Part shown: positions 1 through 53,543 of the stretch, piece by piece
Layout: each line of letters starts with the position of its first letter
How positions within the stretch are numbered: position 1 is the first letter of the stretch
NCBI GenBank assembly: GCA_964016885.1
Contig: OZ024741.1
Location: 252,464,001-252,528,000 of the forward strand
Direction of reading: 5' to 3'
DNA length: 64,000 nt
Source of the DNA: Eledone cirrhosa
Lineage: Eukaryota
Translations under genes and position numbers: made by a program
The notes under the pieces: model-generated
What the model was told of the DNA's origin: nothing
The model's input: the letters and a program-made list of their open reading frames with translations, nothing else
Database searches by the model: none

Positions 1-1448
1 GGAAGGGCTGTTAAAAGCCATGGTATAAATATTTTAGAAGAAAACATCTGTTCTGTCATGTGTATGATAACATCTTTAGCATTGGTGACATGACAAAATA
101 CACACAGAACACTCTGTAAAATGGTTGGTTATGGGAAGGGTATCCAGCCATAATAATCTTATCAAGCCAATGATCAAGAGGTCTCCTCAGTTGTGCCAAA
201 GACATAACGTGTATGATCATGATGAATGTATGACAGATAATATGTCTGAGCAATGAATGACAAACATAAAATATTTGGTCAATGTAGGAGAGGCAATATA
301 TCTGATCAATGTGTAACAATGAAAATATCTGGCCAATATATGATTTTCATATCTCACCAATATATATGAAAGAAAATATGTTTGTCCAATGTATGACAGA
401 CATATGTTTGACTAAATTATGAATTATAACATATCTGATAAATGAATGACAGATAATAACCAACGTATGACATATCTAAGTTAGAATACTAAATGGTGAG
501 GATCTACATATTTTTGTCAAATATTTGAGATCATTGAATATATTATAAAGTGGATTATGGGATTGGAACTTGACCTCTGTTCAGGAAAATCATCAAAACT
601 TAAAATTATCTCTGACTTTTACAATCACCATTATTTCTTCCTAAACAATATGAACATCTCTATATTCATCAGATCATCAAAGTATTGCTTAATCATGGTA
701 ACACACCTTAGAATGTCTGACAGCTCAAAGCAATTGGTAGATCAAAGCAATTGATTGGTCAGATTCTGCCAGTTAGCTGCAGACTTGTCAATGAGCGCAA
801 CTCATTTCTGACTCATCTGGATATGAGCCTATCCCAATCTCCTCTGTTAGTATTGCCTGCTACATATACCAAGGAAAATGTCTTCCACTTGACCTCCATT
901 ACAGAAATAGTCTTACACTCCATCTTCACAAGATATGTGTTAAGAAATACCTATACAGTCCAGTCTATCTACATATTTTTCCAGAAATATTATTACAGTA
1001 CATCTTCCCTAGAAAGTTGATAAAAATAAACCATTCAGTCTAGTCTAACTACAGATTTTTCCAGAAATAGTTTTGCACCCTAACTTCACTATAACTATTT
1101 TCTAAATCAATCTTCCACTCCATTTCCACAAGAAATAATCCAACACTAGAAATATTTTAAGAATTATTCTTTCACTCTCATTCGCGACAAATATTTGTAA
1201 AATAGCTTTAAACCCAAATGAAAGACACGGAAATAAAACAATGAAGGTTGTTACCTAATTAGTGTCTCACAACACCTTATGAACTTTAATTAGTGGTATT
1301 GGGAGGTGGTGGGAATGAAGATGATGATGATGAGGTGGAGCAGGAAGAAGAGACATTTAAAACAGGGGAAAATGGTGATTATGAATGAATATATTTAGTG
1401 GTGATATATAAAAGTTGATGGATATATAATATATGAAATATAACTTAC

Positions 1449-3881
1449 CAATATTGTATTTGGTGGACTCTTCTCAAGGGTACCTGTGTCTATCCATTCA
1501 CTCTGGGATTCATACTGGGGGTAGAAATCTCCCTGACATTCTATATACTGGATGTTTCTATAATTCAAATCTGTAGAATACCTCACTGGGGTACCAGGAA
1601 CACTGCTGTTGCTGCTCTGACATGGTAAAGGTTGATCAATTCTGTTACATATAGCTGACCGATCAACACCTCTCCTAGTGGCCTTTGTAGATTGAGATTG
1701 ACCACTGCTACATTTAAAAATACACAGTGTGATGGACACTACAATGACCACAGCCACTATTACAGCTGCTACTATAATTATAATTAATATTGGTATATCA
1801 AATATTTTGTTCTTCTCTAACTGGACAGTGGTCATCTGTGGTGATGATGTCTTGTTAGTGACCTTTAGTGATAAAGACACAGTAGTTGTGGCTGACATCA
1901 CTGGGGTACCAGAATCCTTGACCACAAGTACCAGTTGATATGAGCCAGCTTCATTGAGATAAGGTGAACGTGAGAAAGACATTTGACCAGTAAAAGAGTT
2001 CAGTGTAAACAACTGTTTATTATTACCATCAAGTATTCCATATTTGAGGAAGGCATTTAAATGACTGTCTCTATCAGTGGCTTTAATCACAGTGATAGCA
2101 TTGGTACTTTGTGGATGGTAGTGGACATTGATATGGAATGGGTCAGTTGTAGGGTAGATAAAATATGGACTATTGTCATTTCTGTCTAAAACCTCAATAA
2201 CAACATTGGCTGTATTATTCAATGATGGTTGACCATTGTCTTTGACAAATACTACAAATTTATAAATGTCTTCTTCTTCTCTATCTAATGGTATGTTGCT
2301 GGTAATAAAACCATAGTCACTCACCTTAAATGGTATATTATTTCTGTCTTTACTTAATATTGAGTAAGTTAGTTGACCAGCACTTCCTAGGTCTAGGTCA
2401 GTGGCATTAATAAAACCTATAGGAAAGTTAGCTTTACCATTCTCATAAGTAAGGAAGTGGAATTTATCTTTGGTAAATTGTGGTTTCACATCATTTACAT
2501 CCATTACTTCAATAGAAATCTTTCTCTCTGCCTCTAAAGGAGGACTTCCATTGTCTTCACATACAATTTTTATGTTAAAATGGTCCAATATTTCTCTGTC
2601 AAGTGATTTTTTCAAAGTAATTTTATATTCCTTAGATTCTAAATGTGAGAGGACAACTTTATCATGTTTTAAATTACAAGTCACCTCTCCATTCTCTCCT
2701 GCATCATTGTCCACTACATTGACGTAAGCTATATAACTGCCCACTTCAGTTCCTTCATAAATTGCTGCTGTATCTTTCTTTAGTTCAGACACAAAATTTA
2801 TTCCAATTTTAGGAGCATGGTTCTCTTCATTAAGAATATTCACCCGTACAATGGCAAGGGAATTTAGTGGGGGATTTCCACCATCTTTTGCTTCTACATA
2901 CAACTTGAGAATGTTCTTTTTTTGTGATGTAAAATGTTTTTTTACAAATAATTCTCCTGTTTGACGGTTTATTTTAAAGTAACTACCAGTGCGCCCTGGA
3001 GTTTTTGAACTGATATAATAAGTAACTTGACCATTTTGTCCAGAATCTGGGTCTTTGGCTGTCAATGTCACAATAGGAATATCATTAGCCTGTGTATTTT
3101 TGATGGAAATATTGTAGATATGCTTTGAAAAAGCTGGTGAGTTATCATTAACATCAATTATTGTTATATGAACATGTAAAATTCCTTGTTTTGGAGGTTG
3201 TCCTCCATCTTGAGCTATCACTTCTAGATTGTAACTATCTTTTAGTTCCCTGTCTAGTTTGTCTCCCAGAACAATCCCTATTTTAGCTCCACCTGTGATA
3301 GTTTTCCTAACAGACAATATAAATGGTTCATTGAATTTTTTCTTCAATTTATATGTAACTTCAGAGTTCTCCATTCCAATATCCTTATCAATGGCATCTG
3401 GTATTAATCTTTCTGCTCCTTCCCGATCTTCTTCATTGAATAAAACTTTTACTTCAGTTTTAGGAAATTCAGGGCCGTGATCATTGATGTCTTGTATAAT
3501 GACTTTAACTTTTATGATTTTCAAAAATGTCTTCCGTTTATGTACAGCAACTTTGATGTATCTAAAACAATCTGATTCATATGTACATAGTTCCTCAGCA
3601 TCAAGTGTTTGTGTAGTGTACAATTTACCATCTTTTGTGACATTAAATAAGTGTGACTCTTCTGTCCATTGCTGTTGCATTTGGTTATATGTGATGAAGT
3701 TATTTTCTACAAGCGAGGCACTATTTTCCATCTGTGTGTCAGCAGCAATATCCCCAACAAATGTAAAGGGACTACTTTCTTCTTCTACATGGTAGCTCAG
3801 ATCAACACAGACACAACTATGTAGTAATAGACTGAGGACATTGGCAAGTAAGTATGTATTCCACACACAGTCTACTTCCAT
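1449..3881 (-). CDS. PCDH: Protocadherin copy 1, large exon (signal peptide, EC1-6, TM, proximal tail; 811 codons); terminal exon expected left of the window
   Basis: Cadherin motifs (LDRE, AxDxG, DxNDNxP), EC1 C-X5-C (CTYESDC), TM ILIIIIVAAVIVAVVIVVSI. ATG at 3881 (the ORF-track start at 3884 is GTG). Acceptor ttttcag, exon starts at 3914. Phase-0 donor TTG|GTAAGT at 1449/1448. Confidence 0.95.
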
Positions 3882-4725
3882 CACAGAATATTAAATCATA
3901 TCTTCTGATTTTATCTGAAAATACAGGAAAAAAAATATTTTCTTTTGAGATAATTCACTGAATATTTGTATTTATATAAACAACCCCTTGTTAAAATACA
4001 TTAAAAGATGCTAAGTAAAAATTTAACCATAGTATAATATAATGTAATAATGCTTAATATAGACATAAAATAGATCACATATCTGAAATATTAATGGTAG
4101 ATAAACCATGCCAACGAAACTCAAGCAGGTGTGAAACTTAACTGCACAATGTGTGGTAAGGCATCTAAGTCAGATCCATGTTTGATATGCCATCTAAGGC
4201 GGCATCAGCAACCCTAACTCCAATAACATAAGTTTGGAATTGTCTATATGTCTTTTTTTTTTCGTTCTAAGAAGTGACCATACTCAGACATGAGTAGGCT
4301 TTCCACTCTGTATGTCTGTATGCATGTCTCTGTATATATTTATGTAATCATGGATGGAATGATAGTTAAGGGATGAGACGATCTGCTTGACATGATTGAA
4401 AGAATATAGTCTGTCATGACAAAGAACTTCATGCACAAACTGAAAGTAGTTGAGAATATACTGAATAACACCATTTTTCTGTGATGAAAACTATCATAAA
4501 TTATTAGTCAATGTTTACTGTATATGTGTGTATGGGTAAGTGTATAATTTTGTGAAGGTATATAAGATGAATATATGTTGTGATAGGTAATTTAGAGGAT
4601 ACAATTTATATGATAAATGGAATACTTCAAGCATTTGTAGTGGATTAGTTGTTTTTTTTAAAATAAAATATATATATGAACTTCAATCTTTTCTTTTTCC
4701 ATATATTCATATCCGGTAAATTCAT

Positions 4726-7318: not shown

Positions 7319-7740
7319 CTCCATTGTCTCATCCATAATCTATGTCTGTATATGATACTCTGTGTTAGTGTGTGGTAGAGTGTGATAGTGTCTCTATGGT
7401 AGTAGTAGAGAGAGGGATCACAAGATGTAACTACTACTACTGCTGTTGTTACTGCTTTTGTCGTTATTGTTGCTGTTGGTATTGTTGTTGTTATTGCTGC
7501 TGTTGTTACTGATTCAGTTGTTATTGCTGCTGTTGTTGTTTTTCTACTGTTCTTCTTATTATTAATGTTGTTATTGCTACTATTGTTACTGCTGCTGTTG
7601 TTATAGATACTGTTGTTACTGCTGCTGTTGTTACAGATACTGTTGTTGCTGCTGCTGTTATTATTGCTGTGTTGTTACTGTTGTTTTTGTTATTACTGCT
7701 GCTGTTTCCCTGCTGCAGCAGTCTACTACACACACACACA
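7319..7740 (-). other. PCDH copy 1 putative leader exon 1 (5' boundary uncertain), with degenerate CAG/CAA tract ~7430-7720
   Basis: Donor GAG|GTAAGT at 7319/7318 preceded by ATGGATGAGACAATGGAG, conserved in all six copies. Confidence 0.6.
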
Positions 7741-8589: not shown

Positions 8590-8613
8590 TTATTTTTTAA
8601 TTCTTGTTGGTAA
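8590..8613 (-). CDS. PCDH: PCDH copy 2 terminal coding exon LPTRIKK*
   Basis: Acceptor gttttctctgttccag|TTA CCA ACA AGA ATT AAA AAA TAA. Phase 0 matches the donor at 10528. Confidence 0.8.
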   Translation of the reverse strand, partial: LPTRIKK

Positions 8614-8805
8614 CTGGAACAGAGAAAACAACATATAAAAGTTGACAAAATATTACATTTCAGACACATCAAACATATGTCTGATCAATGTAATATGTCT
8701 GAAGGAATATGATAGACAATATGTCTGACCAATATATGAGAGACAGTCTTGAATATACTATATATGACAAACACTATAACTGGAGATGTGGCTTTATTTT
8801 TTAAC

Positions 8806-8817
8806 TCATGTTGGTAA
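8806..8817 (-). other. Duplicated proximal terminal exon of copy 2 encoding LPT*
   Basis: gttttctctgttctag|TTA CCA ACA TGA GTT AAA AAA TAA. Confidence 0.6.
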
Positions 8818-10527
8818 CTAGAACAGAGAAAACAATGCATATATATCAATAAATCGTTGAATAAAACATTTTATGTGTAACTGGTTGGGAGGACTCCTCA
8901 GTCATTTGATGGGATATCTTGTATTTGTGCTATAGAGAAAGCACCCAGAACAATCTGGAAGTTGTTTAGTGATAGGAAGGGCATCAGCTGTTAAAAGCCA
9001 TGGTATAAATATGTTGGAAGAAAACATCTGTTCTGTCATGTGTATGGCAACATCTTTAGCATTGGTGACATGATAAAATACACACAGAACACTCTGTAAA
9101 ATGGTTTATTATGGGAAGGGTATCCAGCCATAATAATCTCATCAAGCCAATGATCAAGAGGTCTCCTCAGTTGTGCCAAAGACATAACGTGTATGATCAT
9201 GATGAATGTATGACAGATAATATGTCTGAGCAATGAATGACAAACATAAAATATTTGGTCAATGTAGGAGAGGCAATATATCTGATCAATGTGTAACAAT
9301 GAAAATATCTGGCCAATATATGATTTTCATATCTCACCAATATATATGAAAGAAAATATGTTTGACCAATGTATGACAGACAATATGTCTGACTAAATTA
9401 TGAATTATAACATATCTGATAAATGAATGACAGATAATAACCAACGTATGACATATCTAAATTAGAATACTAAACAGTGACGACCTACATATTTTTATAA
9501 ATATTTGAGATCATTGAATATATTATAAAGTGGATTATGGGACATGAACTTGACCACTACTCTGGAAAATCATCAAAACCGTTCAGGAAAATCATTATTA
9601 AAACTCTTAAAATTATCTCTTTTACAATTCCCATTATTCTTTTCAAAAACAATATTATCAACTCTACATTCATCAGATCATCAAACTATGGTAACACACT
9701 TTACAGTGTCTGATAGGACAAACTTTGAACAAAGCATTTGATTGGTCAGATTTGCGAGTTAGCTGCAGACTATCCCTTCTTAATGAAAATGACACTCCCA
9801 TCTGACTCATCTGAATATGAACCTATCCCAATCTCCTATGTCTTTGAACATTTTCTGGTACCTCAAAGCAATTGATTGGTCAGATTCTGCCAGTTAGCTG
9901 CAGACTATATTCTTTTCAATGAACATGACTCATTTTTGACTCGTCTGACTCATCTGACTCATCTGAATATGAGCCTATTCCAATCTCCTGTGTTAGTATC
10001 TCCTGCTACATAGATCAAGAAAAATGTCTTATACTTGACCTCCATTACAGAAATAGTCTTACACTCTATCTTCACTAGAATATTATGAAATACCCATACA
10101 GTTCAGTCGAACTATAGATTTCCCCCGAAATAGTCTTACATGTTATCTACTCTGTAAATATTTTCTGAATCAATTTTCCACTCCATTTCTACAAAATATT
10201 TGGTAAAAAATAATCTTACACTAGAAATATTTTAAGAATTATTCTTTTGCTCTTCTTCACTACAAATGTTTTTAAAAATAGCTTTACACACAAATGAATA
10301 AGACATAAAAAAAATTGAAGGTTGTTACAAAACTAGAGACTCATGATACCTCATGAATTTCCATTAATGGTATTATGTGGTGATGCTGGCAATGATGATG
10401 ACAAGGTGAAGGATGACAAGCAGGAGGAGGCTACATGTGAAATGGGGGAAACTGATGATTATCAATGAATATATTTAGTGGTGATATATAAAGTTGATAA
10501 ATACATAATATGTAAAATATAACTTAC

Positions 10528-12954
10528 CAATATTGTATTTGGAGGACTCTTTTCCAGGGTACCTGTGTCTATCCATTCACTCTGGGATTCATACTGGGGG
10601 TAAAAATCTCCCTGACATTCTATATACTGGATGTTTCTATAATTCAAATCTGTAGAATACCTCACTGGGGTACCAGGAACACTGCTGTTGCTGCTCTGAC
10701 ATGGTAAAGGTTGATCAATTCTGTTACATATAGCTGACCGATCAACACCTCTCCTAGTGGTCTTTGTAGATTGAGACTGACCACTGCTACATTTCAAAAT
10801 ACACAGTGTGATGGACACTACAATGACCACAGCCACTATTACAGCTGCTACTATAATTATAATTAATATTGGTATATCAAATATTTTGTTCTTCTCTAAC
10901 TGGACAGTGGTCATCTGTGGTGATGATGTCTTGTTGGTGACCTTTAATGATAAAGACACAGTAGTTGTGGCTGACATCACTGGGGTACCAGAATCCTTGA
11001 CCACAAGTACCAGTTGATATGAGCCAGCTTCATTGAGATGAGGTGGACGTGAGAAAGACATTTGACCAGTAAAAGAGTTCAGTGTAAACAACTGTTTATT
11101 ATTACCATCAAGTATTCCATATTTGAGGAAGGCATTTAAATGACTGTCTCTATCAGTGGCTTTAATCACAGTGATGGCATTGGTACTTTGTGGATGGTAG
11201 TGGACATTGATATGGAACGGGTCAGTTGTAGGGTAGATAAAATATGGACTATTGTCATTTCTGTCTAAAACCTCAATAACAACATTGGCTGTATTATTCA
11301 ATGATGGTTGACCATTGTCTTTGACAAATACTACAAATTTATACATGTCTTCTTCTTCTCTATCTAATGGTATGTTACTGGTAATAAAACCATAGTCACT
11401 CACCTTAAATGGTATATTATTTCTGTCTTTACTTAATATTGAGTAAGTTAGTTGACCAGCACTTTCTAGGTCTGGGTCAGTGGCATTTATAAAACCTATA
11501 GGAAAGTTAGCTTTACCATTCTCATAAGTAAGGAAGTGGAATTTATCTTTGGTAAATTGTGGTTTCACATCATTTACATCCATTACTTCAATAGAAATGT
11601 TTCTCTCTGTCTTTAAAGGAGGATTTCCATTGTCTTCACATACAATTTTTATATTAAAATGGTCCAACGTTTCTCTGTCAAGTGATTTTTTCAAAGTAAT
11701 TTTATATTCCTTTGATTCTAAATGTGAGAGGACAACTTTATCATGTTTTAAATTACAAGTCACCTCTCCATTCTCTCCTACATCATTGTCCACTACATTG
11801 ACATAAGCTATATAACTGCCCTCTTCAGTTCCTTCATAAATTGTTGCTGTATCCTTCTTTAGTTCAGACACAAAATTCATATCAATTTCTGGGGCATGGT
11901 TCTCTTCATTAAGAATATTTACTCTTACAATGGCAAAGGAATTTAGTGAGGGATTCCCACCATCTTTGGCTTCTACATACATCTTTAGAATATTCTTTTT
12001 TTGTAATGTAAAGTGTTTTTTCACAAACAGTTCGCCTGTTTGATCATCCAGTTTGAAGTAACGTCTTGTGCGTTCTGGTGTTTCTGAACTAAAATAATAA
12101 GAAACTTGACCATTCTGTCCAGAATCTGGATCTTTGGCTGACAATGTCACAATAGGAATATCGTCAGCCTGTGTATTTTTGATGGAAATATTGTAGATAT
12201 GCTTTGAAAAAGCTGGTGAGTTATCATTAACATCAATTATTGTTATATGAACATGTAAAATTCCCTGTTTTGGAGGTTGTCCTCCATCTTTAGCTATCAC
12301 TTCTAGATTGTAACTATCTTTTAGTTCCCTGTCTAACTTGTCTCCCAGAATAATTCCTATTTTAGATCTACCAGTAATAGTTTTTTTAACAGACAATATA
12401 AATGGTTCATTGAATTTTTTCTTTAATTTATATGTAACTTCTGAATTTTCCATTCCAATATCTTTATCAATGGCATCTGGTATTAATCTTTCTGCTCCTT
12501 CCCGATCTTCTTCATTGAATAAAATTTTTACTTCAGTTTTAGGAAATTCAGGGCTGTGATCATTGATGTCTTGTATAATAACTTTAACTTTTATAATTTT
12601 CAAAAATGTCTTCCTTTTGTGTACAGCAACTTTGATGTATCTAAAACAATCTGATTCATATGTACACAGTTCCTCAGCATCAAGTGTTTGTGTAGTGTAA
12701 AGTTTACCATCTTTTGTGACATTAAACAAAGAATCTGTTCTTTGTCGCTGTATTTGGTTATATGTGATGAAATTATTTTCTACAAGTGAGGCACTATTCT
12801 CCATCTGTGTGTCAGCAGCAATATCCCCAACAAATGTAAAGGGACTACTTTCTTCTTCTACATGGTAGCTCAGATCAACACAGACACAACTGTGTAGTAA
12901 TAGACTGAGGACATTGGCAAGTAAGTATGTATTCCACACACAGTCTACTTCCAT
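10528..12954 (-). CDS. PCDH: Protocadherin copy 2, large exon (809 codons)
   Basis: Same motifs as copy 1. Exon starts at 12987; donor at 10528/10527. Confidence 0.95.
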
Positions 12955-17693: not shown

Positions 17694-17717
17694 TTATTTT
17701 TTGATTCTTGTTGGTAA
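17694..17717 (-). CDS. PCDH: PCDH copy 3 terminal coding exon LPTRIKK*
   Basis: ctctattccag acceptor; synonymous ATC for Ile. Confidence 0.8.
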   Translation of the reverse strand, partial: LPTRIKK

Positions 17718-18672: not shown

Positions 18673-20306
18673 ATTATATGATAGTTATTATGCTTGACAA
18701 AATGTTTACCAGACAATATGTCTGAACAAACATATGACAGACATTGTCATAATGATGTATTACAAAAATTACCATATCATCATCATCATCGATTAACATC
18801 TATCTTCCCTCGCTAGCATGAGTTAGATGGGTTTGTACCATTTAGAGGCAAGTTGGGTTGGGTGACCATGTCTCGCTTATATAGGAGTGTTTCTGGCAGG
18901 TTTTCTATTGTTGGATGCTCTTCATAATGCCAACCACATTGACAGTGTGTGCCGGGTGCATTTTGCTGTGTCCTTTACACATCCACTTTACTCTGTGTTC
19001 AGAGTGCTTTCAGGGCTGGTATACTCGAATATAGGTCTAGTAATATGTGACCAAATAATCAATAATAAATTGGGTGACCAGCTTATATTTGGGGTTAATA
19101 TTTTGAGGATTTTCACTAACTTCAAATTCTATACAAAAAAGTTGCTAAATTAGCTGGACTGATTATTTCCGTCAAACATTATTTTTCTACATTTCCTATA
19201 TCATCTTGAGTTTTATTAAAGCATTGCCTTGCGAACATTGCCACAAAGTTTTTATTCAAACTTTTTAATACATGAATATCCCCTGCACATATACACATAC
19301 ACATGCATGCACAGACATACATATGTGACAACTGTTTTTCTGTCACTTGATTATGCATTTTCTTTCAATCTTCTTTTGTTTTATTTCACTCTCATTTTCT
19401 TACTGTCTCCTTCTCCCTCTTCTACTCTGAATATTTATCTAGAGTTCCCTAAGTTGATCTCTTTCAACTATTCCCTATTCATTTTGACCCCACTAGTGTT
19501 TTTAAAGATCTCCCTAACGTTTAAAGAAAATTTATTTTTTAATATTAATTGAACTAAAGATATATCTCCATTTTTTTATATTATATCAATTGAGAATTTT
19601 CTCTCATGCCTTTTTACTTTCTAAATAAAAAGAAATACAATATTCTAAAGATGTGGGAGAGAGATGTTTTATTTTTACTTGAGGGTTTTGTACATATTAG
19701 ATTGGTAAAACAAAAACTTATTTAAATAACAGTTAAAACAATTCAAAAATATTAAAAGTAGGTAAATATTTTCTCCACTCATAAGAATTACAAAACAGTG
19801 CCATAAAGAGTTATTTAACTGCCTCAGCTTATAAACAGAGTTTGGATTTTTTCCCATTTCTCAGACATAAAACAGGGGGATGGATCAGCTTATATATGAG
19901 TATATTCGGTATGTCTAATCAATGTGGGATAGAGAAGTAAAATGACCAAACAGTAGAGAGGCAATCTGAGTAATGTGTGAAAGACCAGTGAATCAGTTTT
20001 AGGAGAGAGGGCAGGTATTTCAATAAGATTAAATGATGGTAATTATGATGATCATGATGATGATGGTGGTTTTGATGATACCGATAATGAGAAACAATGA
20101 GGAAATTGAAGAGAAGAATGAGAAAGATGATGATGATTACAAAGGAATTAGTTTAGAATTAAAACAATGGCAAGACAACGATGTTGACAATAATGATTAT
20201 TATGGTTGTTTACACCACTGGCCATTATGGTCTGAGACAATTCTTATGTAGAGATGAGGATGTGATATAAAGTTGATAAATACATGATATATGAAATATA
20301 ACTTAC

Positions 20307-22733
20307 CAATATTGTATTTGGAGGACTCTTCTCCAGGGTACCTGTATCTATCCATTCACTCTGAGATTCATACTGGGGGTAGAAATCTCCCTGACATTCT
20401 ATATACTGGATGTTTCTATTATTCAAATCTGTAGAATACCTCACTGGGGTACCAGGAACACTGTTGTTGCTGCTCTGACATGGTAAAGGTTGATCAATTC
20501 TGTTACATATAGCTGACCGATCAACACCTCTCCTAGTGGCCTTTGTAGATTGAGATTGACCACTGCTACATTTCAAAATACACAGTGTGATGGACACTAC
20601 AATGACCACAGCCACTATTACAGCTGCTACTATAATTATAATTAATATTGGTATATCAAATATTTTGTTCTTCTCTAACTGGACAGTGGGCATCTGTGGT
20701 GATGATGTCTTGTTAGTGACCTTTAATGATAAAGACACAGTAGTTGTGGCTGACATAACTGGGGTACCAGAATCCTTGACCACAAGTACTAGTTGATATG
20801 AGCCAGCTTCATTGAGATGAGGTGGACGTGAGAAAGACATTTGACCAGTAAAAGAGTTTAGTGTAAACAACTGTTTATTATTACCATCAAGTATTCCATA
20901 TTTGAGGAAGGCATTTAAATGACTGTCTCTATCAGTGGCTTTAATCACAGTGATGGCATTGGTACTTTGTGGATGGTAGTGGACATTGATATGGAATGGG
21001 TCAGTTGTAGGGTAGATAAAATATGGACTATTGTCATTTCTGTCTAAAACCTCAATAACAACATTGGCTGTATTATTCAATGATGGTTGACCATTGTCTT
21101 TGACAAATACTTCAAATTTATACATGTCTTCTTCTTCTCTATCTAATGGTATGTTACTGGTAATAAAACCATAGTCACTCACCTTAAATGGTATATTATT
21201 TCTGTCTTTACTTAATATTGAGTAAGTTAGTTGACCTGCCCTTCCTAGGTCTAGGTCAGTGGCATTAATAAAACCTATAGGAAAGTTAGCTTTACCATTC
21301 TCATAAGTAAGGAAGTGGAATTTATCTTTGGTAAATTGTGGTTTCACATCATTTACATCCATTACTTCAATAGAAATCTTTCTCTCTGCCTTTAAAGGAG
21401 GACTTCCATTGTCTTCACATACAATTTTTATGTTAAAATGGTCCAATGCTTCTCTATCTAGTGATTTCTTCAAAGTAATTTTATATTCCTTTGATTCTAA
21501 ATGTGAGAGGACAACTTTATCATGTTTTAAATTACAAGTGACCTCTCCATTCTCTCCTACATCATTGTCCACTACATTGACATAAGCTATATAACTGCCC
21601 ACTTTAGTTCCTTCATAAATTACTGCTGTGTCCTTCTTTAGTTCAGACACAAAATTTATATCAATTTCTGGGGCATGGTTCTCTTCATTTAGAATATTCA
21701 CCCGTACAATGGCAAAGGTATTTAGTGGGGGATTCCCACCATCTTTGGCTTCTACATACATCTTTAGAATATTCTTTGTTTGGGATGTAAAATGTTTTTT
21801 TACAAATAATTCCCCTGTCTGATGATTTATTTTGAAGTAACCTATTGTGCGTTTTGGTGTTTCTGAACTAAAATAATAAGAAACTTGACCATTCTCTCCA
21901 GAATCTGGGTCTTTGGCTGACAATGTCACAATGGGAATATCATTAGCATGTGTATTTTTGATGGAAATATTGTAGATATGTTTTGAAAAAACTGGTGAGT
22001 TATCATTAACATCAATTATTGTTATATGAACATGTAAAATTCCTTGTTTTGGAGGTTGTCCTCCATCTTTAGCTATCACTTCTAGATTGTAACTATGTTT
22101 TAGTTCCCTATCTAGTTTGTCTCCAATAATAATTCCTATTTTAGATCTACCAGTGATAGTTTTTCTAACAGACAATATAAATGGTTCATTGAATTTTTTC
22201 TTCAATTTATATGTAACTTCTGAATTCTCCATTCCAATATCTTTATCAATGGCATCTGGTATTAATTTTTCAGCTCCTTCAGCATCATCTTCATCAAACG
22301 TGATGTTTAATTCTGTCTGTGGAAATTCTGGGCTGTGATCATTGATGTCTTGTATAATGACTTTAACTTTTATGATTTTCAAAAATGTCTTCATTTTATG
22401 TAATGCAACTTTGATGTATCTAAAACAATCTGATTCATATGTACACATCTCCTCAGCATCAAGTGTTTGTGTAGTGTACAGTTTACCATCCTTCGTGACA
22501 TTAAACAAAGAATCTGTTCTTTGTCGCTGTATTTGGTTATATGTGATGAAGTTATTTTCTACAAGTGAGGCACTATTCTCCATCTGTGTGTCAGCAGCAA
22601 TATCCCCAACAAATGTAAAGGGACTACTTTCTTCTTCTACATGGTAGCTCAGATCAACACAGACACAACTGTGTAGTAATAGACTGATGACATTGGCAAG
22701 TAAGTATGTATTCCACACACAATCTACTTCCAT
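20307..22733 (-). CDS. PCDH: Protocadherin copy 3, large exon (809 codons)
   Basis: Exon starts at 22766; donor at 20307/20306. Confidence 0.95.
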
Positions 22734-27190: not shown

Positions 27191-27857
27191 ATATACAATA
27201 TTACAACACATATTCTACAGTATACTCCAATGATGTGTCATAAGGGATGTGTATAGTCTGTGTGTAGTGTATAGTCTATAAATGAGTTGTGTAACGATGG
27301 GGTCTGCTATATTGTTATAAGATGCTGTGTATATAAATCTATATAAATATATAGAGAGCAATTGTAGATATTTCATTCAATTTATTGTGTGTAAGCAGGA
27401 GATGATGATAAGGATGATACATATATACTTATATATACATACATATACACTTATACACACACACAGATATGTGTATTTATACATATTTATACACATATCT
27501 ATATATACACACACAGATCATATTTATACATGTGTATATATGAATGTATGTATATAAATGTATATATATGTATGTGTGTGTGTATATATGCATATTTATA
27601 CATATCTATATACACACACATATCATATTTATACATGTATGTATATATATATATATATAACGAAGGAAGTGTGGCACCAGAGTACTCGATATTTTCGGTA
27701 GTAGAGTGGGTAATAGGAAAAGAGTCAGAAACAGCTGTCAAAACGGCTTGAGCTCTGCCGTCGGGGTTCTGACTCTTTTCCTATATATATAATATATATC
27801 TGTATAAATACAGATGGTGAAGACGAGACTGCACCAATGTGTATTATATATACACAT

Positions 27858-28230
27858 ATCTAATATGTAGGTATGTAAACATGCCAGAAAATATGAATTT
27901 CTCTGTAAATTGAAAACCATGATAAACTCCTTTAATCCATCTCCATATCTTATTGGACTCTCATCAGAAGATGTGTATATCATCCAATCAAGCACAAGGA
28001 AACATGTAATTAGTATTATTCTGAAATGGACTTAATAATTTGCCGTAATTAGTACTCCTGTTGGTAATTAGGAACAATAGATATATCCCTGTGGTTGATT
28101 TGATGATATACATTCCTTCTGATGAGGATCCAATTAGATTTGAAAATCAATTAAAGGTGTTTTTTCACTTTTTCATTTGAGAGGTAAATTCCTATATTCT
28201 GGCATGATTACATGTTTACACATTAGATAT
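27858..28230. repeat. Degenerate inverted pair of Penelope-like terminal repeats; also ~37155-37556, 46915-47284, 58716-59118
   Basis: Arms are imperfect reverse complements, and each carries CTGATGA on opposite strands. Confidence 0.6.
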
Positions 28231-28321
28231 GTGTTTATATGTTGGTACAGTCTTGGTTACACACTGTATTGTGTACTTCACGTGCTAGCGCATTTCTTAA
28301 TATATATATAAATATATACAT

Positions 28322-28680: not shown

Positions 28681-28704
28681 TTATTTTTTAATTCGTGTTG
28701 GTAA
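28681..28704 (-). CDS. PCDH: PCDH copy 4 terminal coding exon LPTRIKK*
   Basis: ttttctctgttccag acceptor; synonymous CGA for Arg. Confidence 0.8.
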   Translation of the reverse strand, partial: LPTRIKK

Positions 28705-29655: not shown

Positions 29656-29718
29656 ATATTATAATATATAATATATAATTTACCAATATTGTACCAATAT
29701 ATATAAAATATAACTTAC

Positions 29719-32145
29719 CAATATTGTATTTGGTGGACTCTTCTCCAGGGTACCTGTGTCTATCCATTCACTCTGGGATTCATACTGGGGGTAAAAATCT
29801 CCCTGACATTCTATATACTGGATGTTTCTATAATTCAAATCTGTAGAATACCTCACTGGGGTACCAGGAACACTGTTGTTGCTGCTCTGACATGGTAAAG
29901 GTTGATCAATTCTGTTACATATAGCTGACCGATCAACACCTCTCCTAGTGGCCTTTGTAGATTGAGACTGACCACTGCTACATTTCAAAATACACAGTGT
30001 GATGGACACTACAATGACCACAGCCACTATTACAGCTGCTACTATAATTATAATTAATATTGGTATATCAAATATTTTGTTCTTCTCTAACTGGAGAGTG
30101 GTCATCTGTGGTGATGATGTCTTGTTGGTGACCTTTAATGATAAAGACACAGTAGTTGTGGCTGACTTCACTGGGGTACCAGAATCCTTGACCACAAGTA
30201 CCAGTTGATATGAGCCGACTTCATTGATATGAGGTGAACGTGAGAAAGACATCTGACCAGTAAAAGAGTTCAGTGTAAACAACTGTTTATTATTACCATC
30301 AAGTATTCCATATTTGAGGAAGGCATTTAAATGACTGTCTCTATCAGTGGCTTTAATCACAGTGATGGCATTGGTACTTTGTGGATGGTAGTGGACATTG
30401 ATATGGAATGGGTCAGTTGTAGGGTAGATAAAATATGGACTATTGTCATTTCTGTCTAAAACCTCAATAACAACATTGGCTGTATTATTCAATGATGGTT
30501 GACCATTGTCTTTGACAAATACTTCAAATTTATACATGTCCTCTTCTTCTCTATCTAATGGTATGTTGCTGGTAATAAAACCAAAGTCACTCACCTTAAA
30601 TGGTATATTATTTCTGTCTTTACTTAATATTGAGTAAGTTAGTTGACCAGCCCTTCCTAGGTCTGGGTCAGTGGCATTAATAAAACCTATAGGAAAGTTA
30701 GCTTTACCATTCTCATAAGTAAGGAAGTGGAATTTGTCTTTGGTAAATTGTGGTTTCACATCATTTACATCCATTACTTCAATAGAAATCTTTCTCTCTG
30801 TCTTTAAAGGAGGACTTCCATTGTCTTCACATACAAGTTTTATGTTAAAATGATCCAATATTTCTCTGTCAAGTGATTTCTTCAAAGTAATTTTATATTC
30901 CTTTGATTCTAAATGTGAGAGGACAACTTTATCATGTTTTAAATTACAAGTCACCTCTCCATTCTCTCCTACATCATTGTCCACTACATTGACATAAGCT
31001 ATATAACTGCCCACTTCAGTTCCTTCATAAATTGCTGCTGTATCCTTCTTTAGTTCAGACACAAAATTCATATCAATTTCTGGGGCATGGTTCTTTTCAT
31101 TAAGAATATTCACCCGAACAATGGCAAAGGAATTTAGTGGGGGATTACCACCATCTTTGGCTTCTACATACATCTTAAGTATATTCTTTGTTTGGGATGT
31201 AAAATTTTTTTTTACAAATAATTCCCCTGTTTGATGATTAATTTTAAAGTAGCCTCTTGTGCGCTTTGGCGTTTCTGAACTAAAGTAATACGAAACTTGA
31301 CCATTTTCTCCAGAATCTGGGTCTTTGGCTGACAATGTTACAATAGGAATATCATTAGCATGTGTATTTTTTATGGAAATATTGTAGATATGTTTTGAAA
31401 AAACTGGTGAGTTATCATTAACATCAATTATTGTTATATGAACATGTAAAATTCCTTGTTTTGGAGGTTGTCCTCCATCTTTAGCTATCACTTCTAGATT
31501 GTAACTATCTTTTAGTTCCCTATCTAGTTTATCTCCAATAATAATTCCTATTTTAGATCTACCAGTGATAGTTTTCCTAACAGATAATATAAATGGTTCA
31601 TTGAATTTTTTCTTCAATTTATATGTAACTTCAGAGTTCTCCATTCCAATATCCTTATCAATGGCATCTGGTATTAATCTTTCTGCTCCTTCACTATCAC
31701 GCTCATCAAATGTGATATTTATTTCTCTCTGTGGAAACTCTGGGCTATGGTCATTGATGTCTTGTATAATGACTTTAACTTTTATGATCTTCAAAAATGT
31801 CTTCCTTTTATGTACAGCAACTTTAATGTATCTAAAACAATCTGATTCATATGTACACAGTTCCTCAGCATCAAGTGTTTGTGTAGTGTACAATTTACCA
31901 TCTTTTGTGACATTAAACAAAGAATCAGTTCTTTGTCGCTGTATTTGGTTATATGTGATGAAGTTATTTTCTACAAGTGAGGCACTATTCTCCATCTGTG
32001 TGTCAGCAGCAATATCCCCAACAAATGTAAAGGGACTACTTTCTTCTTCTACATGGTAGCTCAGATCAATACTGACACAACTGTGTAGTAATAGACTGAT
32101 GACATTGGCAAGTAAGTATGTATTCCACACACAGTCTACTTCCAT
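29719..32145 (-). CDS. PCDH: Protocadherin copy 4, large exon (809 codons)
   Basis: Exon starts at 32178; donor at 29719/29718. Confidence 0.95.
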
Positions 32146-36485: not shown

Positions 36486-37644
36486 ATACAATATTACTAC
36501 ACATATTCTACAGTATACTCCAATGATGTGTCATAAGGGATGTGTATAGTCTGTGTGTAGTGTATAGTCTATAAATGAGTTGTGTAACGATGGGGTCTGC
36601 TATATTGTTATAAGATGCTGTGTATATAAATCTATATAAATATATATAGAGCAATTGTAGATATTTCATTCAATATATTGTGTGTAAGCATGAGATGATG
36701 ATAAGGATGATACATATATACTTATATATACATACATATACACTTATACACACACACAGATATGTGTATTTATACATATTTATACACATATCTATATATA
36801 CACACACAGATAATATTTATACATGTGTATATATGAATGTATGTATATAAATGTATGTATATGTGTGTGTGTATATATGCATATTTATACATATCTATAT
36901 ACACACACATATCATATTTATACATGTATGTATATATATATATATATATATAACGAAGGAAGTGTGGCACCAGAGTACTCGATATTTTGGGTAGTAGAGT
37001 GGGTAATAGGAAAAGAGTCAGAACAGCTGTCGAAACGGCTTGAGCTCTGCCGTCGGGGTTCTGACTCTTTTCCTATATATATATATAATATATATCTGTA
37101 TAAATACAGATTGTGTAGACGAGACTGTACCAATGTGTATTATATATACACATATCTAATATGTAGGTATGTAAACATGCCAGAAAATAGGAATTTCTCT
37201 GTAAATTGAAAACCATGATAAACTCCTTTAATCCATCTCCATATCTTATTGGACTCTCATCAGAAGATGTGTATATCATCCACTCAAGCACAAGGAAACA
37301 TGTAATTGATGGGTATATATATATACTCATTCACTGTTAGTATTATTCTGAAATGGACTTAATAATTTGCCGTAATTAGCACTCCTCTTGGTAATTAGGA
37401 ACAATAGATATATCCCTGTGGTTGATTTGATGATATACATTCCTTCTGATGAGGGTCCAATTAGATTTGAAAATCAATTAAAGGTGTTTTTTTATTTTTC
37501 CATTTGAGAGGTAAATTCCTATATTCTGGCATGATTACATGTTTACACATTAGATATGTGTTTATATGTTGGTACAGTCTTGGTTACACACTGTATTGTG
37601 TACTTCACGTGCTAGCGCATTTCTTAATATATATATAAATATAT

Positions 37645-38027: not shown

Positions 38028-38051
38028 TTATTTTTTAATTCGTGTTGGTAA
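38028..38051 (-). CDS. PCDH: PCDH copy 5 terminal coding exon LPTRIKK*
   Basis: Same acceptor and phase as the other copies. Confidence 0.8.
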   Translation of the reverse strand, partial: LPTRIKK

Positions 38052-39082
38052 CTGGAACAGAGAAAATACATAGAAATCAATAAAATATTTGATTCCAGAC
38101 ACATCAAACATATCATGTCTGATATGCAATATGACTGAACAAATATGACAGACAATATGTCTGACTAAATATATAAGAGACAGTCTTGAATATACTATGT
38201 ATGACAAACAATATAACCAATTTCTTACAAACATTATGTCTGACTATAAAATTATGACAAACAATATTTGACCAATGTGCTGCATATATTATGCCGGACC
38301 ATTGTATGACATAATATGTATGACATATATTAATTATGAGTGATGTATGAAAACTAATATATAATAGTCAGTATGATTGAACTATATATAGCAGTAAAGA
38401 TGTCTTATCTATGTTTGCAACACATTATGTCTGTACAGTGTATGATAGAAAATATCTTGATCCAATACATGATAGACAATATGGCTGACCAAAATATGAT
38501 AGTTATCATGTGTAACAAAATATTTCACAGTATGTCTGAAGGAACGTATGACAAATACTGTCAGAATGATGTATGATAAAAGATTATGCTTTACCAATGT
38601 AGCATAGAGAATTAAAATGACCAATATAGGACAGATAAACTGTCTGAGCAATGTAAAATGGTCATGTAGGTTTCATGGCAAATAGCACCCAGCCCATACT
38701 GTAAAGTAGTTGTGTAGGTCTCATGACAAAATCACCCAGCCCACACTGTAAGTGGTCATGTAGGTGTCACAAGAAAAAGCACCCACCCCACACTGTAAAG
38801 TGCTCATGTAGGGTCACGACAAAAAACATGCAGTACTCTCTGTAAATGAGGTTGGCATTAGGAATGGCATCCAGCTGTAGAAACCAAGTTAAAATAAGCT
38901 CTGTATGAGCAAGGCCTAGTCACCTGACCTGGCACAACTTAAACAACTTAAACGACAGCACAACTTGCCCTAACCAATGCTAGCATGGAAAAATGAACAT
39001 AAAACGGTGATGATAAATTATGATGAAATATATAATATATAATTTACCAATATTGTACCAATATATATAAAATATAACTTAC

Positions 39083-41515
39083 CAATATTGTATTTGGAGG
39101 ACTTTTCTCCAGGGTACCTGTGTCTATCCATTCACTCTGGGATTCATACTGGGGGTAGAAATCTCCCTGACATTCTATATACTGGATGTTTCTATAATTC
39201 AAATCTGTAGAATACCTCACTGGGGTACCAGGAACACTGTTGTTGCTGCTCTGACATGGTAAAGGTTGATCAATTCTGTTACATATAGCTGACCGATCAA
39301 CACCTCTCCTAGTGGCCTTTGTAGATTGAGACTGACCACTGCTACATTTCAAAATACACAGTGTAATGGACACTACAATGACCACAGCCACTATTACAGC
39401 TGCTACTATAATTATAATTAATATTGGTATATCAAATATTTTGTTCTTCTCTAACTGGACAGTGGTCATCTGTGGTGATGATGTCTTGTTAGTGACCTTT
39501 AGTGATAAAGACACAGTAGTTGTGGCTGACATCACTGGGGTACCAGAATCCTTGACCACAAGTACCAGTTGATATGAGCCAGCTTCATTGAGATGAGGTG
39601 GACGTGAGAAAGACATTTGACCAGTAAAAGAGTTCAGTGTAAACAACTGTTTATTATTACCATCAAGTATTCCATATTTGAGGAAGGCATTTAAATGACT
39701 GTCTCTATCAGTGGCTTTAATCACAGTGATGGCATTGGTACTTTGTGGATGGTAGTGGACATTGATATGGAATGGGTCAGTTGTAGGGTAGATAAAATAT
39801 GGACTATTGTCATTTCTGTCTAAAACCTCAATAACAACATTGGCTGTATTATTCAATGATGGTTGACCATTGTCTTTGACAAATACTTCAAATTTATAGA
39901 TGTCTTCTTCTTCTCTATCTAATGGTATGTTACTGGTAATAAAACCATAGTCACTCACCTTAAATGGTATATTATTTCTGTCTTTACTTAATATTGAGTA
40001 AGTTAGTTGACCAGCACTTCCTAGGTCTGGGTCAGTGGCATTAATAAAACCTATAGGAAAGTTAGCTTTACCATTCTCATAAGTAAGGAAGTGGAATTTA
40101 TCTTTGGTAAATTGTGGTTTCACATCATTTACATCCATTACTGCAATAGAAATCTTTCTCTCTGTCTTTAAAGGAGGACTTCCATTATCTTCACATACAA
40201 GTTTCATGCTAAAATGGTCCGATGTTTCTCTGTCAAGTGATTTCTTCAAAGTAATTTTATATTCCTTTGATTCTAAATGTGAGAGGACAACTTTATCATG
40301 TTTTAAATTACAAGTCACCTCTCCATTCTCCCCTACATCATCGTCCACTACATTGACATAAGCTATATAACTGCCCACTTCAGTTCCTTCATAAATTGTT
40401 GCTGTATCCTTCTTTAGTTCAGACACAAAATTTATCCTAATTTCTGGGGCATGGTTCTCTTCATTAAGAATATTTACTCTTACAATGGCAAAGGAATTTA
40501 GTGGGGGATTCCCACCATCTTTGGCTTCTACATACATCTTAAGTATATTCTTTGTTTGGGATGTAAAGTTTTTTTTTACAAATAATTCCCCTGTTTGATG
40601 ATTAATTTTAAAGTAGCCTCTTGTGCGCTCTGGCGTTTCTGAACTAAAGTAATACAAAACTTGACCATTCTCTCCAGAATCTGGGTCTTTGGCTGACAAT
40701 GTCACAATAGGAATATCATTAGCATGTGTATTTTTGATGGAAATATTGTAGATATGTTTTGAAAAAACTGGTGAGTTATCATTAACATCAATTATTGTTA
40801 TATGAACATGTAAAATTCCTTGTTTTGGAGGTTGTCCACCATCTTTAGCTATCACTTCTAGATTGTAACTATCTTTTAGTTCCCTATCTAGTTTGTCTCC
40901 AAGAATAATTCCTATTTTAGATCTACCAGTGATAGTTTTCCTAACAGACAATATAAATGGTTCATTGAATTTTTTCTTCAATTTATATGTAACTTCTGAA
41001 TTCTCCATTCCAATATCTTTATCAATGGCATCTGGTATTAATTTTTCAGCTCCTTCAGCATCATCTTCATCAAACGTGATGTTTAATTCTGTCTGTGGAA
41101 ATTCTGGGCTGTGATCATTGATGTCTTGTATAATGACTTTAACTTTTATGATCTTCAAAAATGTCTTCTGTTTATGTAGAGCAACTTTGATGTATCTAAA
41201 ACAATCTGATTCATATGTACACAGTTCCTCAGCATCAAGTGTTTGTGTAGTGTACAGTTTACCATCGTTTGTGACATTAAACAAGTGTGGCTCTTCTGTC
41301 CATTGCTGTTGTATTTGGTTATATGTGATGAAGTTATTTTCTACAAGTGAGGCACTATTCTCCATCTGTGTGTCAGCAGCAATATCCCCAACAAATGTAA
41401 AGGGACTACTTTCTTCTTCTACATGGTAGCTCAGATCAATACTGACACAACTGTGTAATAATAGACTGAGGACATTGGCAAGTAAGTATGTATTCCACAC
41501 ACAGTCTACTTCCAT
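39083..41515 (-). CDS. PCDH: Protocadherin copy 5, large exon (811 codons)
   Basis: Exon starts at 41548; donor at 39083/39082. Confidence 0.95.
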
Positions 41516-47538: not shown

Positions 47539-48497
47539 GAAAAATTGAACAGGGACAGAACAGAGAGGCAGTACAATAAATGTTTATTAAATTCACGCTC
47601 AGGAGAGTGGGGGGTAGGTGGGGACGACGTTTCGGGCATAAGCCCTTCTTCAGGTGAGAAGTGTGTGGGAACAGAGTTCAAAAGGTGTGTAGGGGAGTGG
47701 TGGAGAGACATATAGCGAAAGGAAACGGTGCGAATGAAAAATTAACAAATAAAGACAAAAAATATAATAAATAAAAATAAAGCATGATCAAAATACAAGG
47801 AATGAGAAAATTAAAAAATAAAGGCATGATCAAAATAAACTGAAATAAAAGGGGGGTAAACAGGTGGTGGAAGGGTGTGGGGTGAGTAGGGGTGGTGGCG
47901 GGTAGAGTGGGGAGAGGGAGACGGGGTGTCCGAGCGGAGAGGGCTGAAGGTGGTGTGTGTGGTTAGGTGTGCGTGTGTGTGTGTGTGTGTGTATGTGAAA
48001 GTGAGGGTTGGGGGAAGAACGGGGTTGCATGTTCAGGAAGGTGTGTGTGGGGGGTGTTTTTGTGGGTCGGAGTGTCTGTGCGTGTGTGGATAGGGGGTGG
48101 GGGGAGAGGAATCAGGAGGCTGAGGGTGTAAATATGTGGTGGGAAGCACGTGTGTGTGGTTTAAGCGTGTTGTGGGTGTGGGTGGCGTGTGGATAAAAAT
48201 AAATTTTTGGGGGTGTGTGTGTCGGTGAGTTATATAGGTGATGGTGTAAGAGGATGGTTGAAAAGTTGGTAAGTTCCACGGATGTTTGGAGATTTGGTTA
48301 GAAGTCAATTTCGCGTGTGGGTAATCCAAGAAGCGGTGGTCGGAAGAGGAGAGATGTGGGGTGCGCGCGCAACAGGAAGTGGTCAGCAGTGGGAGTGCTG
48401 TGGTCAGTTGGTGCTGAGAGGTGGTCGGAAGGGCATAGCAGCAGTCGGCGGAATGGTAGGGAGGTGAGGATGGGTAGGTGTGAGACTTGGAGTGAGG

Positions 48498-48576
<79 letters not shown>

Positions 48577-51113: not shown

Positions 51114-53543
51114 CAATATTGTATTTGGAGGACTTTTCTCCAGGGTACCTGTGTCTATCCATTCACTCTGGGATTCATACTGGGGGTAGAAATCTCCCTG
51201 ACATTCTATATACTGGATGTTTCTATTATTTAAATCTGTAGAATACCTCACTGGGGTACCAGGAACACTGCTGTTGCTGCTCTGACATGGTAAAGGTTGA
51301 TCAATTCTGTTACATATAGCTGACTGATCAACACCTCTCCTAGTGGCCTTTGTAGATTGAGACTGACCACTCCTATATTTCAAAATACGCAGTGTGATGG
51401 ACACTACAATGACCACAGACACTATTACAGCTGCTACTATAATTATAATTAATATTGGTATATCAAATATTTTCTTCTTCTCTAACTGGACAGTGGTCAT
51501 CTGTGGTGATGTTTTGTTAGTGACTTTTAATGATAAAGACACAGTAGTTGTGGCTGACATAACTGGGGTACCAGAATCCTTGACCACAAGTACCAGTTGA
51601 TACGAGCCAGCTTCATTGAGATGAGGTGGACGTGAGAAAGACATTTGACCAGTAAAAGAGTTCAGTGTAAACAACTGTTTATTATTACCATCAAGTATTC
51701 CATATTTGAGGAAGGCATTTAAATGACTGTCCCTATCAGTGGCTTTAATCACAGTGATGGCATTGGTACTTTGTGGATGGTAGTGGACATTGATATGGAA
51801 TGGGTCAGTTGTAGGGTAGATAAAATATGGACTATTGTCATTTGTGTCTAAAACCTCAATAACAACATTGGCTGTATTATTCAATGATGGTTGACCATTG
51901 TCTTTGACAAATACTTCAAATTTATAGATGTCTTCTTCTTCTCTATCTAATGTTATGTTGCTGGTAATAAAACCATAGTCACTTATCTTAAATGGTATAT
52001 TATTTCTGTCTTTACTTAATATTGAGTAAGTTAGATGACCACCATCTCCTAGGTCTGGGTCAGTGGCATGAATAAAACCTATAGGAAAGTTAGCTTTATT
52101 ATTCTCATAAGTAAGGAAGTGGAATATATCTTTGGTAAATTGTGGTTTCACATCATTCACATCCATTACTTCAATAGAAATCTTTCTCTCTGTCTTTAAA
52201 GGAGGGCTTCCATTATCTTCACATACAAGTTTTATACTAAAATGGTCCAATGTTTCTCTATCTAGTGATTTCTTCAAAGTAATTATATATTCCTTGGATT
52301 TTAAATGTGAGAGGACAACTTTATCATGTTTTAAATTACAAGTCACCTCTCCATTCTCCCCTACATCATTGTCCACTACATTGACATAAGCTATATAACT
52401 GCCCACTTCAGTTCCTTCATAAATTGCTGCTGTATCCTTCTTTAGTTCAGACACAAAATTTATATCAATTTCTGGGGCATGGTTCTCTTCATTAAGAATA
52501 TTTACTCTTACAATGGCAAAGGAATTTAATGGAGGATTCCCACCATCTTTGGCTTCTACATATAACTTGAGAATTTTCTTTTTTTGTGATGTAAAGTGTT
52601 TTTTTACAAACAATTCTCCTGTCTGGTGGTTTATTTTAAAGTAGCCTCTTGTGCGCCCTGGAGTTTTTGAACTGATATAGTAAGTAACTTGACCATTCTG
52701 TCCTGAATCTGGGTTTTTGGCAGACAATGTCACAATAGGAATATCATTAGTATGTGTATTTTTGATGGAAATATTGTAAATATGTTTTGAAAAAACTGGT
52801 GAGTTATCATTAACATCAATTATTGTTATATGAACATGTAAAATTCCTTGTTTTGGAGGTTGTCCTCCATCTTTAGCTATCACTTCTAGATTGTAACTAT
52901 CTTTTAGTTCCCTGTCTAGTTTGTCTCCCAGAACAATTCCTATTTTAGCTCCACCTGTGATAGTTTTCCTAACAGACAATATAAATGGTTCATTGAATTT
53001 TTTCTTCATTTTATATGTAACTTCAGAGTTCTCCATTCCAATATCTTTATCAATGGCATCTGGTATTAATCTTTCTGCTCCTTCACTATCACGCTCATAA
53101 AATGTGATATTTATTTCTCTCTGTGGAAACTCTGGGCTATGGTCATTGATGTCTTGTATAATGATTTTAACTTTTATGATCTTCAAAAATGTCTTCCGTT
53201 TATGTACAGCAACTTTGATGTATCTAAAGCAATCTGACTCATATGTACACAGTTCCTCAGCATCAAGTGTTTGTGTAGTGTACAGTTTACCATCTTTTGT
53301 GACATTAAATAAGTGTGAAGAATCTGATCTTTGTCGCTGTATTTGGTTATATGTGATGAAGTTATTTTCTACAAGTGAGGCATTATTCTCCATCTGTGTG
53401 TCAGCAGCAATATCCCCAACAAATGTAAAGGGACTACTTTCTTCTTCTACATGGTAGCTCAGATCAACACAGACACAACTGTGTAGTAATAGACTGAGGA
53501 CATTGGCAAGTAAGTATGTATTCCACAAACAGTCTACTTCCAT
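51114..53543 (-). CDS. PCDH: Protocadherin copy 6, large exon (810 codons)
   Basis: Exon starts at 53576; donor at 51114/51113. Confidence 0.95.

Follow-up and report, generated by a model that had tools for sequence, protein, structure and literature searches.

Introduction

Clustered protocadherins of coleoid cephalopods are placed in sub-arrays of multi-exon whole-gene duplicates, for which duplication together with gene conversion was suggested (Albertin et al. 2022, PMC9068888; Styfhals et al. 2019, PMC6339937). The arrays, the conversion and a possible convergence are already in print (PMC9068888, PMC6339937, PMC9795677, PMC10084454). According to the 2019 report, nothing was known about the adhesion specificity of cephalopod protocadherins (PMC6339937). 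In Octopus vulgaris some protocadherins are ubiquitous and others are cell-type enriched, and the neurons have about 21 protocadherins each (PMC9712504).

In vertebrate clustered protocadherins the repeats EC2 and EC3 largely escape gene conversion (PMC4978886, PMC1852091), and the structures contain three calcium ions at every EC junction (PMC5106212). The interface elements described by Nicoludis et al. are the EC2 beta4-beta5 loop, the EC3 Phe-X10-Phe loop and EC4 beta1a, with couplings between residues 77-371, 39-320 and 159-255 (PMC5001838). In swaps between alpha7 and alpha8, the alpha7 residues 36/38 and 322/324 are specificity switches (Goodman et al. 2016, PMC5106212). Mouse beta6 and beta8 are 92% identical over EC1-4 and do not cross-bind, and beta6 residue 117 is one of the five that separate them (PMC8901172). 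The vertebrate delta-protocadherins use the same interface and bind heterophilically within their family (PMC8901172).

The presence of a vertebrate-like recognition code in the cephalopod protocadherin expansion has been a question since the octopus genome. A literature search that covered few subscription papers retrieved none on cephalopod protocadherin interfaces, covariation or calcium-site loss.

The window analysed here is a stretch of 64,000 nucleotides from Eledone cirrhosa (assembly GCA_964016885.1, contig OZ024741.1, positions 252,464,001 to 252,528,000). It contains six tandem whole-gene protocadherin duplicates, all on the minus strand. The locus is like other coleoid clustered protocadherin sub-arrays, with head-to-tail whole-gene duplicates and no shared constant exon, and the orthologous arrays of O. 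vulgaris and Argonauta are 81-82% identical to the window copies. The copies form a patchwork, their alleles are shared among three octopod lineages and the linkage between variable blocks is nested. Beyond the accessible content of the coleoid array papers (PMC9068888, PMC6339937), the analysis concerns individual tracts, shared alleles, locked pairs and the candidate interface.

Organization of the array

The ORFs of the six copies have 821-841 codons each and a spacing of about 9.5 kb (Table 1). Each copy encodes six cadherin repeats, a transmembrane (TM) segment and a short tail, with Pfam matches to Cadherin_2 and Cadherin. The best named matches are octopod protocadherins, the closest from Octopus vulgaris (82%) and Argonauta hians (81%).

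At the ORF ends a GTAAGT donor is read through, and the predicted C-terminus is encoded by a separate small exon in each repeat unit. The seven codons of this exon give the same C-terminus as in the O. vulgaris and Argonauta proteins. An own upstream exon is predicted in all six units and an own last exon in the five units that have it inside the window; that of copy 1 would fall just before the window start. A constant exon common to the copies was ruled out, since the last exon is repeated in each unit. The non-coding flanks of the units are 75-96% identical where alignable, often only partly so, and identity drops at the exon edges; the alignment also reveals upstream blocks conserved among the units.

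The predicted upstream exon carries a conserved ATG (7319-7336; 3891-3914; equivalents in all six units) that opens a short uORF once spliced. In all six copies the stop of the spliced uORF lies three codons before the main ATG and in frame with it. This conserved uORF may limit translation. The predicted first exon of each unit follows a long tract of degenerate trinucleotide repeats, which varies in length (7420-7700 and equivalents). Unit 2 has, 200 nt upstream of its intact last exon, a degenerate duplicate of that exon interrupted by an in-frame stop (8794-8817). Between the genes, several units contain recurrent inverted-repeat elements, each 400-650 nt long. Just downstream of the last exon of copy 6, at about 47540-49750, there is a GC-rich insertion of about 2.2 kb, which we take to be a likely fragment of a Penelope-like retroelement. 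Its minus-strand ORF (49048-49827) has a weak GIY-YIG match (E 0.004, below the Pfam cut-off).

Table 1. Positions of the features within the window; codon and residue numbers are those of copy 1.
Feature	Position	Strand
Copy 1 ORF	1395-3881	-
Copy 2 ORF	10462-12954	-
Copy 3 ORF	20244-22733	-
Copy 4 ORF	29680-32145	-
Copy 5 ORF	39044-41515	-
Copy 6 ORF	51018-53543	-
Copy 1 large exon, coding part (signal, six cadherin repeats, TM, tail to splice donor)	1449..3881	-
Copy 2 large coding exon	10528..12954	-
Copy 3 large coding exon	20307..22733	-
Copy 4 large coding exon	29719..32145	-
Copy 5 large coding exon	39083..41515	-
Copy 6 large coding exon	51114..53543	-
EC1 C-strand end and CD-loop cassette, codons 68-77, alleles Q70/W72/E74 or R70/R72	3651..3680	-
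EC2 first-strand and AB-loop cassette, codons 141-153, three alleles in the window	3423..3461	-
EC2 DE-loop cassette, codons 198-204, G198 or R198	3270..3290	-
EC3 C-strand and CD-loop cassette, codons 287-296, K293 or E293	2994..3023	-
EC4 first-strand cassette, codons 358-360, K-I-G, E-x-D or E-I-R (copy 5)	2802..2810	-
EC3-EC4 linker NEENH replacing DxNDN	2817..2831	-
Lost EC3-side ligand positions, copy 1 (all copies alike)	2817-2831, 2925-2936, 3096-3101	-
Predicted upstream exon, copy 1, conserved GTAAGT donor at end, 5' limit approximate	7319..7420	-
Upstream-exon equivalents in the other units	ends at 16610, 26902, 36252, 45985, 57289	
Predicted last coding exon, copy 2 (7 codons and stop)	8590..8613	-
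Equivalents of the copy 2 last exon	17694-17717, 28681-28704, 38028-38051, 49936-49959	
Inverted-repeat elements	27846-28270, 37103-37597, 46863-47325, 58716-59117, 60777-61424	

Mosaic structure of the large exon

The initial annotation of this DNA had described multi-residue variant blocks that group the copies in incompatible ways. All the blocks that it quoted were found in the six ORFs with the groupings given, and the alignment confirmed that each copy holds a distinct combination of them. The identity among the six copies in EC1-4 is 89-96%. Among the 113 informative sites of the six copies, incompatibility increases from 6.5% for sites up to 10 nt apart to 32% for those 31-60 nt apart and 56-66% once the distance exceeds 120 nt. 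Neighbouring informative sites are incompatible in 22% of the pairs, compared with 56% after permutation (p=1e-4, 10,000 permutations), and the minimum number of recombination events is 36. The far-minus-near difference in incompatibility is 0.47, whereas it does not exceed 0.13 in 200 single-tree simulations. A single tree for all segments, which had been named as the outcome contrary to a mosaic, was not found: in the AU tests, none of the 105 topologies was left unrejected by all seven segments.

The exchange operates on a small scale. The two halves of EC2 have incompatible topologies with no tree in common, and 216 of the 496 informative pairs within EC3 are incompatible. Synonymous sites are as incompatible as the remainder (59% of pairs, 42 sites), which supports the proposed shuffling of short blocks at the DNA level. 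These short tracts are likely exchanged by gene conversion.

The mosaic extends over the whole large exon. Shuffling had been assigned to EC1-EC3, but conversion is not confined to these repeats and EC4 is also part of the code. The homogenisation claimed for EC5-EC6, TM and tail holds in that this part is less divergent (pS 0.050 vs 0.184 in EC1-4; amino-acid identity 96.5% vs 91.9%) and fails in that it is mosaic as well, with 6 of 10 informative pairs incompatible in EC5 and 9 of 15 in the tail. The individual pS values of EC1-EC4 are 0.17, 0.18, 0.29 and 0.10, against 0.05 in EC5-tail. No positive selection was seen at the level of domains (pN/pS 0.21 in EC1-4). EC1-EC4 stand out by older variation, not by more amino-acid change per silent change.

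Alleles shared among octopod lineages

The orthologous arrays were obtained by cluster look-up, with fused models split, and provided 13 rows from O. vulgaris, 8 from O. sinensis and 7 from Argonauta. Together with the six window copies the full set has 34 rows, in which the relatives are compared as protein sequences. The same alleles occur in the arrays of all three species. The variable columns of EC1-4 coincide among lineages, with 24-26 shared where 7-11 would be expected (p=0.002, the lowest value that the shift test can give). At eight columns (68, 70, 72, 151, 198, 293, 358 and 360), one and the same pair of residues is found in the window, in O. vulgaris and in Argonauta.

In the EC1 cassette the difference is 0.17 across species within an allele and 0.54 within species across alleles; the corresponding values for its flanks are 0.18 and 0.01. 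The cassettes group by allele and the flanks by species, which argues that the alleles most likely predate the split of these octopod lineages. Repeated convergence would be a less likely, though conceivable, origin of the same pattern.

Locked long-range pairs

The cassette mosaic had been called combinatorial in the initial annotation. The combinations are restricted, however: the EC1 cassette goes with the one at the start of EC4 (residues 358-360), which had been missed, and the EC2 DE loop goes with the EC3 CD loop. R72 of EC1 and D360 of EC4 are concordant in 27/27 copies that cover both sites, and R198 of EC2 and E293 of EC3 in 29/30, counts drawn from paralogous copies that are not independent of each other. 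The sole exception, Ov37 (R198 with K293), is a 351-residue model in which the matching ends at residue 332; it stands outside the core set because it is partial.

Covariation was evaluated as a lineage-centred association between polymorphic columns at least 40 residues apart in a core of 20 of the 34 rows, which leaves out the 8 rows of the sister species O. sinensis, 4 partial O. vulgaris models and 2 divergent end-of-array copies. After family-wise correction 10 of 788 long-range pairs pass (p 0.007-0.008). Nine are EC1-EC4 pairs (70/72/74 with 358/360) and one is the EC2-EC3 pair 198 with 293; |r| does not exceed 0.62 for any EC1-EC2, EC1-EC3, EC2-EC4 or EC3-EC4 pair in the 20 core copies. 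Among the 27 full-length copies no pair passes the correction (best p 0.15), because the shared ancestry of the divergent end-of-array copies dominates. The window alone gives p=0.067 per lock.

The residues in phase are of complementary charge. Basic R70/R72 occur with acidic E358/D360, and R198 with E293; in the alternative states E74 occurs with K358 and neutral G198 with K293. Copy 5 combines the acidic EC1 allele with E358 plus a unique R360. The two locks assort freely relative to each other (cross pairs concordant in 18-20 of 28-29, p 0.07-0.26), and all four lock combinations are present in the window, in O. vulgaris and in Argonauta. In the window, copies 1, 2, 5 and 6 represent the four, and copies 2, 3 and 4 have both locks in common. 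For the 141-153 cassette, no locked partner was found by long-range covariation in the 20 core copies. With the pairs locked, the main cassettes therefore yield about 2 x 2 x 3-4 classes.

Position of the cassettes in the predicted ectodomain

In an AlphaFold monomer model (pLDDT 86, pTM 0.56) the cassettes are placed in the EC1 CD loop, the EC2 first strand, the EC2 DE loop, the EC3 C strand and CD loop, and the EC4 first strand. Over EC1-4 the model aligns with extended vertebrate structures (TM 0.6-0.74, rmsd 5-8 Å, about 30% identity). By this model and by motif anchoring, the blocks map to the loops that carry specificity in vertebrate clustered protocadherins. Cadherin topology puts the two sites of each locked pair far from each other within one chain, whereas an antiparallel dimer would bring them into register. 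In an EC2-EC3 pair, the EC2 DE loop and the EC3 CD loop occupy opposite ends.

The motif-anchored equivalents of the vertebrate couplings 77-371, 39-320 and 159-255 are 110-418, 66-362 and 198-294. Residue 198 corresponds to S159 of PcdhgB3, 293 approximately to 254, and 360 approximately to T322 of alpha7 if chain and paper numbering agree. The EC1 lock partners 70/72 fall 4-8 residues beyond the alpha7 specificity residues 36/38. The 141-153 cassette covers the equivalent of beta6 residue 117, as mapped via gammaB3 numbering and not on beta6 itself.

Two non-overlapping family-wide sets were compared, one with 117 other, mostly octopod, proteins and one with 117 relatives of a cuttlefish query. 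EC1-EC4 or EC2-EC3 account for 37/50 and 38/50 of the top inter-domain couplings, respectively, and for about one third of all pairs. Of 70,586 pairs, 110-418 ranks 2nd in the first set and 4th in the second. The pairs 70-362, 195-292 and 196-293 are in the top 20 of the first set and far down in the second, and the pairs 70-360, 72-360 and 198-293 rank poorly in the first. The 110/124-388/418 charge swap traces essentially to a single event on the tree of the first set; with 6 pairs at most, none of the tree-based independent-pair and sign tests on this set reached significance. The covariation gives indirect support to a putative antiparallel EC1-4 trans interface.

In a second octopod sub-array (P0017-P0097, 21 members) the EC1/EC4 interface positions are near-constant and the same EC2/EC3 loops are variable. 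E197 occurs there with a basic residue 292, and L197 with I290-S-P-Q. The best pairs are 197-290, 142-336 and the non-antiparallel 46-298 (p=0.08). Covariation in this subfamily fails correction (p 0.24 with 15 Argonauta rows; p 0.08 with 20 of the 21 rows, a gapped one being omitted), and its pairings are suggestive only.

Calcium linker between EC3 and EC4

EC3 has no xE, DRE and DxNDN calcium ligands, in the window and in 234/234 related protocadherins, and DxND at EC3-EC4 is found in 0/117 relatives of either set. At the other linkers, conservation of the ligands tested is 93-100%, the EC4-side ligands of EC3-EC4 are kept and the EC2-EC3 linker is fully canonical. A profile search of 50% representatives matched mostly giant cadherins. 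This composition predicts a partly calcium-free EC3-EC4 junction, possibly bent or flexible, and both locks would be read there. Since the EC3-side ligands are absent, the geometry may differ from that of the vertebrate dimer.

Interpretation

On balance we favour an octopod protocadherin array that is reshuffled by conversion and in which two charge-matched pairs are probably kept in phase by head-to-tail self-binding. Each protein would bind its own copy across the cell gap as an antiparallel EC1-4 dimer. Purifying selection would remove the tracts that move one half of a lock, and both states of each lock would be maintained because distinct self-preferring isoforms would be useful. New isoforms would arise when conversion re-deals whole locks together with the free 141-153 cassette. 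The charge-complementary locks are at or beside vertebrate trans-interface positions, and it is therefore likely that selection retains the matched pairs for self-binding as conversion redistributes them.

The interface and the locks could instead be real and serve self-binding only, with wide cross-reaction among copies or with a role as cell-type or tissue adhesion tags and not as identity tags of single neurons. This is a less probable reading, to which we give perhaps one chance in four. It agrees with the small number of classes, the likeness of copies 2-4 in both locks, the heterophilic binding of delta-protocadherins through the same interface (PMC8901172) and the ubiquitous or cell-type-enriched protocadherins of O. 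vulgaris (PMC9712504). Nevertheless, both lock alleles persist in three lineages despite homogenised flanks, which argues for selection for difference and not for function alone. It appears improbable that the pairs covary through intrachain contacts or contacts of a cis dimer, aided by a calcium-poor, bendable EC3-EC4 hinge. The EC3-side ligands are indeed gone in all 234 relatives, and covariation does not separate cis from trans; but the EC2 DE and EC3 CD loops are at opposite ends of a pair with a fully canonical calcium linker, the monomer model matches the extended vertebrate EC1-4, though with a pTM of only 0.56, and the couplings agree with known trans contacts.

A neutral patchwork would need four ancestral types, blocks that escaped conversion or rare long tracts, and an incidental charge match, and is regarded as very improbable. 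The copies are few and related, and a long tract over 198-293 would mechanically yield nested linkage. However, the locked EC2 and EC4 blocks differ by few bases, whereas the most divergent block, 141-153, moves freely. The sites between locked blocks have incompatible partitions or lineage-fixed changes; there are 24-31 lineage-fixed differences in the stretch from the EC1 block to the EC4 block and 9-13 in that from 198 to 293. A neutral conversion simulation, a toy model with 6 or 8 copies, tracts of 100-600 nt and stopping points chosen by the analyst, kept perfect phase in 6/629 outer and 13/749 inner informative runs, about 1-2%, and in at most 3/25 in one setting. The slightest chance is left to an assembly or polishing artefact that mixes paralogs. 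Short-read contigs and RAD reads are too short to phase the blocks, but the same alleles occur in the same phase in protein models from the assemblies of three other species, the unit flanks are distinct where alignable, and both EC4 alleles are found in contigs of run X1 and of run X5 from a second organism.

Our preferred reading of conversion filtered by self-binding can be extended, more tentatively and with slightly less than even confidence. Ancient two-state EC1:EC4 and EC2:EC3 locks plus a free multi-state cassette might form a modular self-recognition code, re-dealt by conversion in the germ line and read where the EC1-EC2 junction meets the calcium-depleted EC3-EC4 junction of the partner. 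Neuronal barcodes, which vertebrates obtain by promoter choice and insects by Dscam splicing, might then be reached in cephalopods by a third route. The use as neuronal identity tags, proposed in the initial annotation, is the least supported element.

Arrays and conversion were known, and the locked pairs with their putative interface residues and the apparent calcium-site loss would be the new contribution. The sequence evidence names a likely interface: allele swaps at the paired sites 70/72 and 358/360, or 198 and 293, should switch or break self-binding. The residues are a handful, and therefore few constructs suffice for testing. With one calcium site lost throughout the family, a distinct shape is predicted for the ectodomain. 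The results suggest convergence at the level of the binding surface by another genetic route, in which conversion acts within the specificity domains and selection on the paired sites filters its products.

Comparison with known recognition systems

Like vertebrate clustered protocadherins, the window copies have a six-repeat ectodomain on one exon and variable EC2 beta4-beta5, EC3 Phe-X10-Phe, EC1 C-strand and EC4 beta1a segments. Charge complementarity between partners and the strongest homogenisation in the membrane-proximal repeats are also common to both. On the other hand, the octopod genes are an independent expansion with about 30% identity. They lack the shared constant exons of the vertebrate alpha and gamma clusters, EC2 and EC3 are converted in short tracts, and EC3-EC4 has no EC3-side ligands, unlike the vertebrate junctions with three ions each.

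Modules that match a partner are known from the modular specificity of Dscam1, and old alleles kept across species from the trans-species polymorphism at MHC and self-incompatibility loci. Unlike those of Dscam1, the modules of the window move between paralogous genes in the germ line and are not shuffled by splicing. Unlike those at MHC or self-incompatibility loci, the old alleles segregate here among paralogs and not at one locus.
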